DNA from: Candidatus Micrarchaeota archaeon
GTDB lineage: Archaea > Micrarchaeota > Micrarchaeia > Norongarragalinales > SBBD01
Direction: 5' to 3'
Assembly: GCA_043813365.1 (NCBI GenBank)
Contig: JBDRLB010000031.1
Coordinates: forward strand, 1 to 11,146
Length of the DNA stretch: 11,146 bases
Part shown: piece by piece, positions 1 to 3,000 of the stretch
Layout of the letters: every line of letters begins with the position of its first letter
Position numbering within the stretch: position 1 is the first letter of the stretch
Made by a program: the position numbers

Positions 1-3000
1 GGCGCTTGAGCAGCTGGGCGGATTTGACGAGGACAATATCGCGGAGGACATGGAGGTCGCGCTCAATTTGAGGAGAAACGGGTACGAAATAGTGACAACT
101 ACGGATGCGGTTGCATTCACCGAAACCCCGAACAACCTTAGGAGTTTCTACAAGCAGAGGATCAGGTGGTTCAGGGGCGCCATTTACAACGGCAGGAAAT
201 ATTTCTACATGCTCTTCAACCGCGCGTACGGCAATTTCGGGAAATTCGTTTTCCCGGTTTCATACATCATCCAGGCATTTTCCATAGTCATCATGGCAAG
301 GCTGGTATCGCTATATTTGGAGGGCATGCTGGCAATCCTTGCGGTTTTGCTGAATATTGCACCCGCATCCGCATCGCTCGTGGCGGATGTCCTTGCACCC
401 CATCTGCTCAGGCTGCAGAGCACGGTAATTTTCACAATAACAACTTTCCTCATTTGGGGGTACGTAGTCTACACTAGCTTCGGGATAGCCGGAAGGAAGA
501 TGAATGTTCGGCATTTGCTACCTGTTTTTATTTTTATGAGCATCTATCCTTTCGTGCTTGCCCTGATATATTTGATCAGTTTCATCAGGGAGATCGCAAA
601 GAGTGAGGCAAAATGGTGAGCGTTTTCATAAAAGCGGGAGTGATCGTGCTCCTTGTTTTCATCGGCAACGTATTGGTAGTGAAGAACATCGAGGACGGCA
701 GACAAGCGGAGGTGCAGGAGAAGCTTGCAAAAATGGAGAGGGAGGGCCAGACTTCAAAGCTGATGCTGCTTTACATGCAGACCTTGGACAAGGAGGACGC
801 GGCAGCGCTTTGCCCGGCGCTTGATTCGCTCACATCGGAGCAGATATTGGCGGCAAACAACCTGGCTTACCAGATAGACAAGTACAGGGAGGCCAATCTT
901 ATCGCCAGTTTGGAGGAGGCGCGGGAGCGGTACATCCTGAACAGCGTCGAGCTATGGCTTTACCTGAAGCAGCTGGAGGAGGTTTGCGGGATGAAGAAGC
1001 TTACTCCGATACTTTATTTCTACCCCGAGAAGGCCGCATGCCCCGAATGCAAGGTGCAGGCGGATATTCTGAATTCATATAGGGACAGGTGCACGAACGT
1101 TAGGGTATTTGCCTTCCCTGCAACGCGTGAAAACGGCATTATCAAAGTGCTCACGGCAAAATACAACGTCACCAAAACGCCCTCGCTTGTTATTAACGAC
1201 AAAACCTTTGGGGGAATAATCGGCGAATCCATCTTGAAGGAGGAAGTGCCGTGTGCATAAATTGAAATTTGTTGCGCCTTCGAACGCATCGCCCAGATGC
1301 CATTCAAGTGCCTTTGCCCGTCATTTATAAATATAATCAGAAATAACATTACGCTGTGCCCCGGTAGCTCAGCTGGTTAGAGCGGCTGACTGTTAATCAG
1401 CAGGCCGCAGGTTCGAAATGACTTGCCCCTTTCTTTTTAGAAAAAAGAAAGCGGCGGTGTCGCCGCTGGAAAGAAAAAATTGTCCTAATTCGCTAATCAT
1501 TAGCGCTTTCTTTGGCGGTGCCATACGCCTTTCTTTCTGGAAAGAAAGGCAAGGCAGCGAATATCCTGCCCGGGGCGCTTTTTTTAATTGCTATTGCTTA
1601 AGGGTTTGGTGAGTATTGTGGATGAGAAGCTAATTGCAAAAGTAACTGAAGAGATGCTAAAAAGGGCCGTTACTGATTTGCCTAAGGATGTAGAGGTTGC
1701 TCTTGCGGAAGCTGAGAGGGAGGAATTGAAAGCAAGGCAGGAAGTCGCCTCCGAACAGCTCTCAATTATCAATAAGAACATCGGGATTGCGAGGAGGAAA
1801 TGCGCCGCTCTTTGCCAGGATACGGGAACGTTGAGCTTTTTTGTAAAGGGAAAAACATTGACGAAGGAAATTGAGGCGGGGATTATTGAAGGAGTGCAAA
1901 ATGCAACTAAAAATGTGCCGCTGCGGCCGAATTCCGTTGATCCGCTTTCACGTAAAAATTTGGGCAACATCCCTTTCATCCACCTCGAATTTTCCGATCA
2001 TGATTATTTGGAAATTTCCGTGATTCCCAAGGGAGCGGGATGCGAGAACATGGCCGCGCTGTTCATGCTAAGGCCGTCTGATGGGATGGAAGGGATAAGG
2101 AAGGCGATTTTGACGCATGTTGCGGAGAAGGCGAGGAATGCTTGCCCGCCGATTGTTTTGGGCGTTGGGATAGGAGGGACGCCGGAAGAGGCGATGAGAG
2201 CCGCAAAGGAGAATCACCTTAGGAAATTGACGGACAGGAACCCGGACAAGGAATTGGCGGAATTCGAGAAACGGCTGAAGGATGAAATCAACCAGCTGGG
2301 GATCGGAACGATGGGATTGGGCGGGATAAAAACTGCTTTGACGGTGAAAGTTAAGAAAATCCCCTGCCACACCGCAAGTTTGCCGGTTGCGCTGAACATA
2401 GAGTGCTGGGCGGACAGGAGGTTGACTGCGAGAATTTTTGAAAATGGGAATATTGAGTATTTGGAGTGATAGCTTAGATGAAAATTGAATTGAAAACGCC
2501 AATCACGAAGGAGCAGGTCCTGAAATTGAAGTTGAATGATATCGTCTACATAAGCGGAAAAATCTTCTCGATCAGGGATCAGGCGATGAAGAGAATATTG
2601 CAGGAGAAGGATACGCATCCGGAATTGGAGGATGCGGCAATCTACAATTGCGGGCCACTGGTGAGGAAAAAGGGAAACGGATGGGAGCTGATTTCAGCAG
2701 GGCCGACAACTAGCAGCAGAATGAATGATCTGGCTGTTGAATTTATTCCGAGATTCGGGGTAAGTGCGATAATTGGGAAGGGAGGGATGAGCCAGAAAGT
2801 GCTGGAGGCGATGAGGGGGAAATGCGTTTACCTTTCGGCGGTTGGGGGAAGCGGTGCGGTTTCGGCGGAGCAATTGAAAGTTATGGGGGTGGAATGGGAA
2901 GATTTGGGGATGCCGGAGGCATTCTGGAAATTGGAGGCGGAAAAGTTCGGCCCGCTTATTGTAAGCATGGACGCGGCAGGCAACAGCTTATATGAAAGGA

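Follow-up and report, generated by a model that had tools for sequence, protein, structure and literature searches.

A hairpin-forming repeat in tRNA introns and at gene ends of a Micrarchaeota lineage that probably enters new sites as DNA

How introns arrive in archaeal tRNA genes is an open question. It is raised by the tRNA-Asn(GTT) gene at positions 1358–1577 of the stretch of DNA analyzed here (the window; 11,146 nt, positions 1–11,146 of the forward strand of contig JBDRLB010000031.1, assembly GCA_043813365.1, Candidatus Micrarchaeota archaeon, hereafter G000), the intron of which is made of a module that recurs in the genome and gives a rare look at a possible origin of introns from inserted DNA. 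The host is a tiny groundwater archaeon of the Micrarchaeota; its genome is 88.6% complete, and every genome compared is a metagenome assembly. On balance it is probable, although with real reserve, that the module is the basic unit of small hairpin-forming DNA repeats without coding content, a family that is restricted to a single Micrarchaeota lineage and spreads to new sites at the DNA level.

ARAGORN called no tRNA in the window, tRNA-Asn(GTT) being missed, and the Rfam tRNA match of the window scan (41.3 bits) covers 1363–1428 only; in practice, standard tRNA finders miss genes of this kind. A canonical tRNA-Asn was regained in a deletion scan with ARAGORN on removal of about 145–146 nt, and neither the 23 ARAGORN hits of G000 nor its 19 Rfam hits include a second tRNA-Asn. 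The fold of 1350–1585 (-98.1 kcal/mol, z = -5.1, 0 of 200 shuffles equally good) has a T-stem GCAGG/CCUGC and a 4-bp helix with a 3-nt bulge on either side, and this long fold and a mini-substrate fold both give a strict 3-4-3 bulge-helix-bulge (BHB). The initial annotation had placed a T-loop intron of 147 nt at 1418–1564; the T-loop intron stands, but its extent is revised, since with the folded BHB a T-loop of 7 nt (UUCGAAU) requires an intron at 1418–1563, 146 nt. By analogy with archaeal promoters generally, the A/T-rich box upstream of the gene is presumably a promoter element, and the run of seven T behind it is, by analogy with archaeal termination, a likely transcription stop (Table 1). 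Four DNA metagenome runs compared with window positions 900–2300 gave only tRNA exons of other organisms, over 1355–1417, and no contig spanning the intron.

Table 1. The tRNA-Asn(GTT) locus and the parts of its intron, in window positions.
Feature	Position	Strand	Basis
A/T-rich TATA-like box, ~30 nt upstream of tRNA start	1324..1336	+	read from sequence
tRNA-Asn(GTT) 5' exon, acceptor to T-loop position 59	1358..1417	+	Rfam match, deletion scan
BHB 5' half: strand UUCG 1412-1415, bulge AAA 1416-1418	1412..1418	+	MFE, centroid and mini-substrate folds
146-nt intron, T-loop position 59/60	1418..1563	+	BHB geometry and 7-nt T-loop
Left unit, inverted, long (L) subtype, tail toward 5' exon	1420..1475	-	nhmmer 35 bits; covariance model 60.4 bits
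Central spacer with palindrome GCTAAT-C-ATTAGC (1492-1504)	1476..1507	.	sequence, locus comparison
Right unit, forward, short (S) subtype	1508..1555	+	nhmmer 51.5 bits; alignment of copies
Linker and BHB 3' half: strand CGAA 1558-1561, bulge UAU 1562-1564	1556..1564	+	folds
tRNA-Asn 3' exon: U60, T-stem, acceptor, discriminator	1564..1577	+	sequence, fold, deletion scan
Run of seven T directly 3' of tRNA	1579..1585	+	sequence

The intron has the architecture first described for it, an inverted module, a palindrome and a module, i.e., two units of about 50 nt standing head to head around the palindrome. Each unit is polar, with a head formed by half of the palindrome plus TTCTTT and a tail GCAAGGC; the order within the right unit is TTCTTT, a short GC hairpin, a TTTCTTT/AAAGAAA hairpin and the tail. 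A head-to-head pair makes an element of about 130–150 nt that ends in inverted tails (GCCTTGCC...GGCAAGGC), single units have no terminal inverted repeat, and no open reading frame is present. At the place of the central spacer other copies carry TTTGATT.GCAAATCAAA (locus comparison).

An iterated nhmmer search seeded with 1507–1556 gave 48 hits that merge to 30 copies in G000, the number given originally, with best nhmmer and covariance-model E-values reaching 1e-14. Module introns had been reported from 11 tRNA genes; they are indeed found, but in 12 genes of different isotypes (16 copies), nine checked with ARAGORN and three (on C26, at the start of C40 and on C65) placed by eye only. The deletion scan restores Asn(gtt), Arg(gcg), Val(gac), Met(cat), Arg(tct), Thr(tgt), and Ser(cga), and Leu(taa) and Arg(cct) are found by ARAGORN without any deletion. 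The introns lie mostly at position 59/60 and sometimes at 37/38, and in all 16 intron copies the tail faces the exon, 0–9 nt from its boundary. Six further copies lie 28–77 nt downstream of tRNA genes (28–76 nt in the initial annotation), each in the orientation of the tRNA, and the remaining eight are found outside both kinds of place, again as annotated. Thus 22 of the 30 copies are within tRNA genes or at most 77 nt behind them, and 14 of 30 are outside introns. Units stand tail-first behind protein genes and head-first behind tRNA genes, and the tail flanks of the copies on C7 and C74 resemble a reversed T-arm.

Is the module maintained where it is because it serves the host there? RNAalifold on 27 copies reproduced the figures of the initial annotation, 13 pairs of which seven carry changes on both sides, and the covariation includes a long-range G(C/A)C-G(G/U)C pair. 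The caveat that such pairing fits DNA-level hairpins equally well holds: the stems show no strand asymmetry, since G-U/U-G cells (2) do not exceed A-C/C-A cells (3). In the copy alignment 19 columns are invariant, and the non-pairing TTCTTT, the GCGG.G.C...CGC core and the tail are conserved too. No Rfam family corresponds to the module, in line with the earlier search; Rfam 15 gives only tRNA at gathering score in the window, and an E-value scan of five module loci returned two chance-level hits only (E 0.6–0.8). One way to read this is that the hairpins were selected as stable intron helices and homogenized by gene conversion, without any mobility, the copies away from tRNA genes being due to chance. 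Other introns of G000 commonly contain polypyrimidine/polypurine hairpins, and the introns on C31 and C76 have left arms that are about 98% identical with different centers and right arms, which suggests exchange between copies. This explanation is nevertheless very improbable, because parts that do not pair are conserved, almost half of the copies lie outside introns, and the E-values are as low as given above. Against a mobile reading, on the other hand, no two copies at different loci are identical over their full length, and neither a clearly recent transposition nor a filled/empty polymorphism within a single population was seen.

The reported conservation in the genus is confirmed, the covariance model matching five of five other genus genomes (15–28 matches each) and eight of nine of the family; with G000 included, all six genus genomes hold 15–33 modules each. 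Across the order the model finds the module in 22 of 40 genomes, with a distribution that is patchy among families and yet near-identical sequence where it is present (E about 5e-13 or better in G023, G029, and G035). A tRNA T-arm adjoins the tail in 20 of 27 further S-type copies from seven named Micrarchaeota/Norongarragalinales MAGs. All four copies examined beside protein genes are absent from the same sites in congeners, the C7 copy in G002, G003, and G004, the C44 copy in G001–G005, the C56 copy in G002–G005 and the C74 copy in G001, G002, and G004, and the SpoU-like gene end beside C47:11967 is without a module in seven other genomes of the family. Position 59/60 of tRNA-Asn was compared in the six congeneric genomes G000–G005, and the claim that the module turns over at a fixed intron site is borne out by six different states: L-inverted plus S-forward in G000, S-inverted plus L-forward in G004, S-inverted plus a short arm in G003, L-inverted plus unrelated sequence in G001, an unrelated 97-nt intron in G002, where an intron without the module had been noted, and no intron in G005. 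Units thus occur in both orientations relative to transcription inside introns.

A host cis-element, i.e., a site that selection keeps for the host as a terminator, for processing or stability, or for the binding of a protein, and for which presence in introns is secondary, would account for the strong sequence conservation across the genus and families with its invariant columns, for the covariation and its long-range pair, for the common orientation of the six copies behind tRNA genes and for the location of copies at gene ends. Against it, the four spacer copies are missing from orthologous sites, the unit order behind protein genes is opposite to that behind tRNA genes, both orientations are tolerated within introns, and tRNA-Asn already has a seven-T run of its own. 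We therefore consider this explanation quite unlikely. Among the functions that the initial annotation had left open (terminator, processing site or mobile element), the sequence comparisons favor a mobile or insertional reading over a position-conserved host signal, and module introns would accordingly stem from insertion.

Many non-intron copies have a duplicated end of the neighboring gene beside them. At a threshold of p ≤ 0.05 against 400 random positions, a direct duplication of the neighboring gene end was found at four of 14 non-intron loci vs. none of 12 intron loci in G000, and at p ≤ 0.01 it flanks nine of 21 copies sampled in relatives, eight of them clearly. In each of the 12 clear cases, the start or end of one repeat copy is at most 7 nt away from the tail. 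The duplications vary in length (18–65 nt) and concern 3' as well as 5' gene ends, most copies being without any, and the insert between the repeats is 60–130 nt and contains no gene. On C42 the duplicated 3' exon noted behind the module was found again, 15 of 15 bases being identical before a further similar stretch. Duplication of the tRNA 3' part from the T-loop past the end of the tRNA is seen at ten loci, a minority of copies (C42, C2, L086, L087, L089, L090, L096, L098, L139, and L143), and it runs beyond the mature 3' end into the spacer. Between duplicated coding ends, 35 codons differ synonymously and 3 non-synonymously, which is not predicted by simple local duplication at insertion. 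On C47 both gene-end copies encode an identical 18-residue peptide that is unlike all seven orthologs, so that any donor must be a close relative outside the sample; a search of genome contigs for loci related to the SpoU-like gene found none. Readthrough translation of the orphan end on C47 was discarded, as the 62 nt that separate the stop codon from the orphan copy shift it to another frame (manual count), and so was BHB splicing between duplicated coding ends, as the flanks are on inspection direct repeats and not complementary. An assembly chimera was likewise rejected as their origin, since the same arrangement is seen again in independent MAGs and the tail and the orphan copy would not be connected by any k-mer path. 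The recoded duplicates are a separate puzzle; they suggest that recombination with diverged relatives takes place in DPANN populations.

These duplications are what a miniature integrative element, or recombination with foreign DNA, could leave if the module marked the end of DNA entering at gene ends. The crossover would be made by a tyrosine recombinase in the T-loop or anticodon loop, or else homology would serve to integrate one end while the other is joined at the tail; either way, a replacement gene end would arrive with the DNA and the displaced native end would be left as an orphan. The excess of synonymous differences is expected if two selected, diverged alleles are brought together, and insertion of e14 or phage 21 in the icd gene of E. 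coli yields the same pattern of two diverged alleles joined, with an intact gene, inserted DNA and an orphan gene end. The tRNA duplicates of the ten loci begin in or at the T-loop, and the intron sites 59/60 and 37/38 coincide with the two places within tRNA genes at which integrases are reported to cross over classically (Williams, 2002). Duplication of tRNA 3' parts from a loop onward is shared with integrative elements including the tRNA-Thr element of Caldiarchaeum, and for that archaeon a recombinase-bearing element that integrated was already proposed as the source of tRNA intron gain (Sugahara et al., 2012; PMC3293823). Unlike the e14, phage 21 and Caldiarchaeum elements, the module is a short insert without a gene and has many targets at both gene ends; a separate replacement end would be required for each of at least eight different target genes, the length of the duplication is not constant, and for C47 the donor could only be an unsampled close relative. 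The single Phage_integrase hit in G000 (C63:4587–4973, 34 bits) may be a chromosomal Xer, the short insert leaves no integrase gene within the element, and no larger related element was found among phage records (blastn of the intron, no match) or viral contigs (exact S-type pattern, 0 stretches). This alternative is unlikely in our judgment, and it differs from the preferred explanation in mechanism but not in the DNA-level nature of the element.

The search for mobility genes covered Y1_Tnp, TnpB-type, RVT_1, Cas1, and Phage_integrase. TnpB-type, reverse transcriptase and Cas1 genes had no match in G000 at its 88.6% completeness, and an autonomous relative with a transposase, as for a MITE, was not found among the five gene families. 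The one Y1_Tnp of G000 (C8:140–570) is flanked by hairpins unrelated to the module, and Y1_Tnp is present in two of six genus genomes vs. modules in all six, while G023 has 10 modules and no Y1_Tnp; a RAYT/IS200 gene was therefore rejected as consistent partner. A target-site duplication of fixed length was not found at the copies. Mobility could also have acted on RNA, an excised circular intron RNA being reinserted by reverse splicing or ligation and then copied into DNA. The tails always abut splice junctions, the tail flanks on C7 and C74 look like a T-arm in reverse, and the spread of the family over 12 tRNA genes of different types is like that of the Thermoproteales families (PMC4090602; bioRxiv 10.64898/2026.10.13.758758). 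Such a route is hardly plausible given units in both orientations relative to transcription, copies outside any BHB context, duplications that extend past the mature tRNA, and the failure to find a reverse transcriptase.

With insertion of DNA as the preferred explanation, copies would persist in these compact genomes in two kinds of place, in tRNA loops (mostly 59/60, sometimes 37/38) and just outside gene ends. Within a tRNA loop the two tails would zip into an outer helix, and the self-complementary TTCGAA of the T-loop would pair with its own copy beside the 3' tail to give the 4-bp central helix and the BHB bulges, so that inverted tails together with a palindromic T-loop would make the element spliceable. 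A broad-specificity three-unit splicing endonuclease and RtcB would then remove it as an intron. Mini-substrate folds of eight T-loop introns gave two strict 3-4-3 BHBs (C31, C40b), the others being relaxed or unclear. The putative endonuclease EndA is a single open frame of 392 aa with two endonuclease-domain matches (C73:2868–3347), and RtcB matches lie on C7 and C27. From these folds and matches, module introns are predicted to be spliced.

Introner elements of eukaryotic algae and fungi are non-autonomous DNA elements whose insertion creates an intron, element and target supplying the splicing signals. That the module is their archaeal counterpart, giving rise to BHB introns as a DNA repeat that is not autonomous, is a tentative idea that we rate as less likely than not. 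Insertion beside the T-loop would bring a second copy of the segment from T-loop to 3' end, the two T-loop copies would pair as the central BHB helix with the inverted tails as outer helix, and one or two bases added to the linker would produce the 3-nt bulge. Loci with a complete tRNA, a module and an orphan 3' exon would then be intermediates caught in the act, as the preferred explanation also has it, decaying to a T-loop intron if the upstream copy of the 3' exon is lost, or to a module behind a tRNA if the downstream copy is. Since duplicated coding ends differ almost only at synonymous sites, each gain would involve DNA of a diverged relative, and spread would proceed by inter-lineage recombination and not by a transposase. 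Introners resemble the module as non-autonomous DNA elements proposed to create introns with signals from element and target, but the introns here are BHB introns, of the kind spliced by protein, and not spliceosomal, the hosts are tRNA genes and not mRNAs, and transposition is only proposed. One repeat is thus found in four states, as tRNA introns, behind tRNA genes, beside protein genes and in intermediate-like arrays of gene, module and orphan end, which makes the inserting end, the duplicated part and the acceptance of the product by the endonuclease testable in a defined system.

MITEs and the REP and BIME sequences of bacteria are short, non-coding, hairpin-forming, multi-copy and mostly extragenic or at gene ends, with inverted mosaic pairs of two subtypes. 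The module shares with them short multi-copy non-coding hairpins, inverted pairs of two subtypes and presence that differs among relatives; unlike them it has no fixed target duplication, partner transposase or RAYT-type link, and its main niche is tRNA genes, as predicted spliceable introns. The term "introner" also occurs in PMC11782384. The transposed tRNA-intron families of the Thermoproteales (Fujishima et al., 2010) are described, in papers citing them, as DNA-level gains by an unknown mechanism (PMC4090602; bioRxiv 10.64898/2026.10.13.758758, section 2.5), and there too tRNA genes for several isotypes carry related introns, at both canonical and non-canonical sites. Compared with those descriptions, the module is also found outside tRNA genes, has a two-hairpin anatomy with polarity, can stand either way round at a single site, often has duplicated gene ends beside it, and belongs to a DPANN archaeon and not a crenarchaeon. 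New here are the lineage-specific spacer copies, a tRNA-Asn site that holds either orientation, other sequence or no intron, the rule that tails face exons, the flanking gene-end duplications and the synonymous-heavy divergence of coding duplicates. ARMAN-2 (Micrarchaeum) has introns at 59/60 and other non-canonical sites and a three-unit epsilon-2 endonuclease (PMC3239211; PMC3488258). The 59/60 intron assayed in that work has 13 nt, unlike those described here, and a repeat family or long hairpin intron is not mentioned in the passages of PMC3239211 consulted; the phylum is the same, the enzyme is likewise a single-frame endonuclease of about 390 aa with several units (387 aa in ARMAN-2), and it is reported to accept relaxed BHBs and to cut a 59/60 intron in vitro (PMC3239211).

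ARAGORN detected no tRNA anywhere in the window, and coverage by the Rfam tRNA model was limited to positions 1363-1428 of the tRNA-Asn gene; once approximately 1418-1563 was deleted, ARAGORN called tRNA-Asn. The 236 nt from 1350 to 1585 are predicted to fold at -98.1 kcal/mol (z = -5.1; none of 200 shuffles was equally good), in which GCAGG and CCUGC form the T-stem, UUCG pairs with CGAA over 4 bp, and each of the two bulges, AAA and UAU, is 3 nt long. A bulge-helix-bulge (BHB) is cut after base 2 of each bulge, which here would give the T-loop UUCGAAU and an intron of 146 nt (1418-1563). 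The T-loop intron of the initial annotation is present, but by this predicted cut its length of 147 nt was one base too long. The genome under study (G000; 1.34 Mb, 78 contigs, 49% G+C, completeness 88.6%) yielded 23 hits with ARAGORN and 19 with Rfam, none of them a second tRNA-Asn, and the gene in the window therefore presumably has to work. The named genomes nearest to G000 are MAGs titled Candidatus Micrarchaeota or Norongarragalinales. Its neighbours are ordinary (see table).

Iterated nhmmer, seeded with window 1507-1556 and run to convergence, gave 48 hits in G000 that merged into 30 module copies, the number initially annotated; a covariance model gave 33 matches. The unit reads TTCTTT, a short GC-rich hairpin with the invariant core GCG.G.C...CGC, a TTTCTTT-loop-AAAGAAA hairpin and GCAAGGC, and occurs as one short (S) and several long (L) subtypes. 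Many units have half of the palindrome TTTGATT.GCAAATCAAA upstream; we term this end 'head' and the opposite GCAAGGC end 'tail'. Long introns consist of two units, head to head, with the palindrome between them. RNAalifold on 27 copies again gave 13 pairs, 7 with both sides changed, and, as had been cautioned, register shifts between subtypes account for part of these changes. Over a longer distance in the same alignment, G(C/A)C pairs with G(G/U)C, and both sides of this pairing are changed in 3 copies. The stems hold 2 G-U/U-G and 3 A-C/C-A cells, i.e., no G-U excess, and the pairing therefore cannot separate RNA from DNA, or strand from strand. In extended modules, copies similar to which are also carried by relatives, the second hairpin's loop holds an additional conserved hairpin (...CCAACCGGAAAGAGC.T.GCGCTCTTT.CGGCC...). 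On the anticodon side, the introns of tRNA-Cys and of the tRNA on contig C76 consist of a third hairpin variant, GCC.CTTTTTCTTTC....GAAAGAAAAAG.CC.TTGGG...AAAAAGAAAGG.

Sixteen modules are spread over the introns of 12 tRNA genes in G000, six follow a tRNA gene at a distance of 28-77 nt, each oriented like the tRNA, and the remaining eight lie elsewhere. The tail is 0-9 nt from the exon boundary in all 16 intron copies, and in introns with a single recognisable unit the opposite side carries a short GGCAAGG or a degenerate GCCTGGC. The module is probably an insertional, non-coding DNA repeat: its inverted tails together with the palindromic T-loop would turn it into a BHB intron and so permit survival in tRNA loops, and outside them it would survive at gene ends. 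Mini-substrate folds of T-loop introns gave a strict 3-4-3 BHB in two of eight; the others were relaxed. G000 encodes RtcB and a candidate splicing endonuclease, a 392-aa frame with two endonuclease-domain matches. The ARMAN-2 endonuclease, a three-unit enzyme of 387 aa, cleaves strict as well as relaxed motifs in vitro, a 59/60 intron included, and introns at that position are already known in Micrarchaeota (PMC3239211). Matches to 1-50 and 42-194 of the RtcB Pfam model lie about 1.4 kb apart in one open frame, which suggests that it holds an intein or other insertion.

Positions of features in the window, on other G000 contigs (C numbers) and at the tRNA-Asn 59/60 site of congeners (G001-G005)
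Feature	Position	Strand	Description
tRNA-Asn(GTT)	window 1358-1577	+	T-loop interrupted by intron
Fumarate hydratase class I, two subunits	window 1588-3041		directly 3' of tRNA-Asn
Cdc48-type AAA ATPase	window 4467-6845	-	
Module introns, 9 genes	59/60		Asn, Arg-gcg, Val-gac, Met, Arg-tct, Ser-cga (deletion scan); C26, C40 start, C65 (by eye)
Module introns, 3 genes	37/38		Leu-taa, Arg-cct, Thr-tgt
T-loop intron	C26:21040-21140		inverted unit broken by ~42-nt insert within GC hairpin
Extended modules	C9:4974-5075; C42:33921-34025; C50:12273-12371; C75:17957-18056		~100 nt
Third hairpin variant	C3:76-140; C76:18308-18375		
RtcB frame	C27:11425-13434		719 aa
RtcB C-terminal part	C7:31021-31758		separate contig
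Y1 transposase	C8:1-600		contig start; IS200-like, ~143 aa
Duplication	C42		tRNA 3' exon
Duplication	C2		tRNA-Val 3' exon; second copy also gives valid tRNA in deletion scan
Duplication	C47:11967		about 65 nt
Duplication	C74		about 46 nt
tRNA-Asn 59/60	G000		L-inverted / palindrome / S-forward
tRNA-Asn 59/60	G004		S-inverted / palindrome / L-forward (opposite orientation); plus D-loop intron
tRNA-Asn 59/60	G003		S-inverted + short arm
tRNA-Asn 59/60	G001		L-inverted + unrelated sequence
tRNA-Asn 59/60	G002		unrelated intron, 97 nt
tRNA-Asn 59/60	G005		without T-loop intron

At 59/60, no two of the six congeneric tRNA-Asn orthologues share a state. All four copies checked beside protein genes (C7, C44, C56, C74) were absent from the same sites in aligning congeners; where C7 carries the unit, G002 has 13 nt of spacer. 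At both C7 and C74, TAG has given way as stop codon to a TGA created by the junction ...TTTTGAAT|GCCTTGCC. We argue from these sites for insertion at the DNA level and against a position-conserved host signal; that the module is a host cis-element is improbable. Mobility as an RNA-level intron is given hardly any weight, and there is as slight a chance that convergence and gene conversion produced the copies. An extra D-loop intron of ~30 nt is present in tRNA-Asn of G004 (locus L040) and G005 (L043), and absent from G000. A second small element, unrelated to the module (core ...CCAGGGgaACTAGTTCCCCTACGCGTGTCGCCTCTACCC...GCGAATT), occupies sites of the same types: it is the tRNA-Asn 59/60 intron of G002 (L041), and lies directly 3' of the stop of a zinc-ribbon gene, orthologous to that of C44, in G001:C74 and G002:C6. 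At G004:C46 (L057) a gene end duplicated over 33 nt flanks it, the two copies showing 5 synonymous and 0 non-synonymous codon differences.

On either side of many non-intron copies of the module, the end of the neighbouring gene occurs as a direct repeat. In G000 this was found at 4 of 14 non-intron loci against 0 of 12 intron loci (p<=0.05, 400 random positions), and at 20 loci sampled from other genomes for 9 of 21 copies (p<=0.01), where one match (L080) is of low complexity and 8 are clear duplications. Of the 12 clear cases, 11 consist, in this order, of an intact gene ending in X, a 2-50 nt spacer, the module from head to tail, 0-6 nt and an orphan X'; in the exception, C74, the tail adjoins the intact gene end. 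In tRNA duplications X' begins in or at the T-loop and continues beyond the tRNA end. At L092 the gene's 5' end is duplicated in mirror image. It is conceivable, if tentative, that loci of the type tRNA, module, orphan exon are intermediates of intron birth and that the module is an archaeal analogue of introners.

The four coding duplicates hold 35 synonymous, 3 non-synonymous (one a start codon, ATG vs TTG) and 27 identical codons. The two C47 copies differ at 17 of 57 nt and encode an identical 18-residue peptide, which differs from the 7 family orthologues seen; the module is absent there in all seven. Judging by these near-purely synonymous differences, the copies must either have diverged as functional alleles or both be under selection. 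A decaying local duplicate as their source does not match this divergence.

The closest precedent is found among Thermoproteales, for which transposition of intron families has been proposed (PMC4090602; bioRxiv 10.64898/2026.10.13.758758, section 2.5). In the latter, a 2026 Asgard preprint, cross-isotype families hold 28.3% of 272 Thermoproteales intervening sequences, and its conclusion is that the arrival route is still open. In literature searches on Micrarchaeota/DPANN tRNA introns, tRNA introns with MITEs, and introners with BHB, no listed title or abstract describes such a repeat. The sole Y1 transposase of G000, present in 2 of 6 genus genomes, has two flanking hairpins of its own, unrelated to the module; G+C of this region is seemingly above its surroundings. 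TnpB-type proteins, reverse transcriptase and Cas1 had no match in G000 (88.6% complete), and a tyrosine recombinase had a single weak one. That the module is a miniature integrative element, or spreads by homology-anchored recombination, is rather unlikely.

The covariance model, with E-values that are rough, matched all five other genus genomes (15-28 each), three of four additional genomes of the family and, patchily, the rest of the order, i.e., 22 of 40 genomes including G000. Members of three other families (G023, G029, G035) have near-perfect copies. Among 185,579 species genomes the exact S-type pattern was found in 27 stretches of 7 MAGs, all titled Micrarchaeota or Norongarragalinales, and in viral contigs it had no occurrence. 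A tRNA T-arm directly adjoins the tail in 20 of the 27 stretches (by eye).
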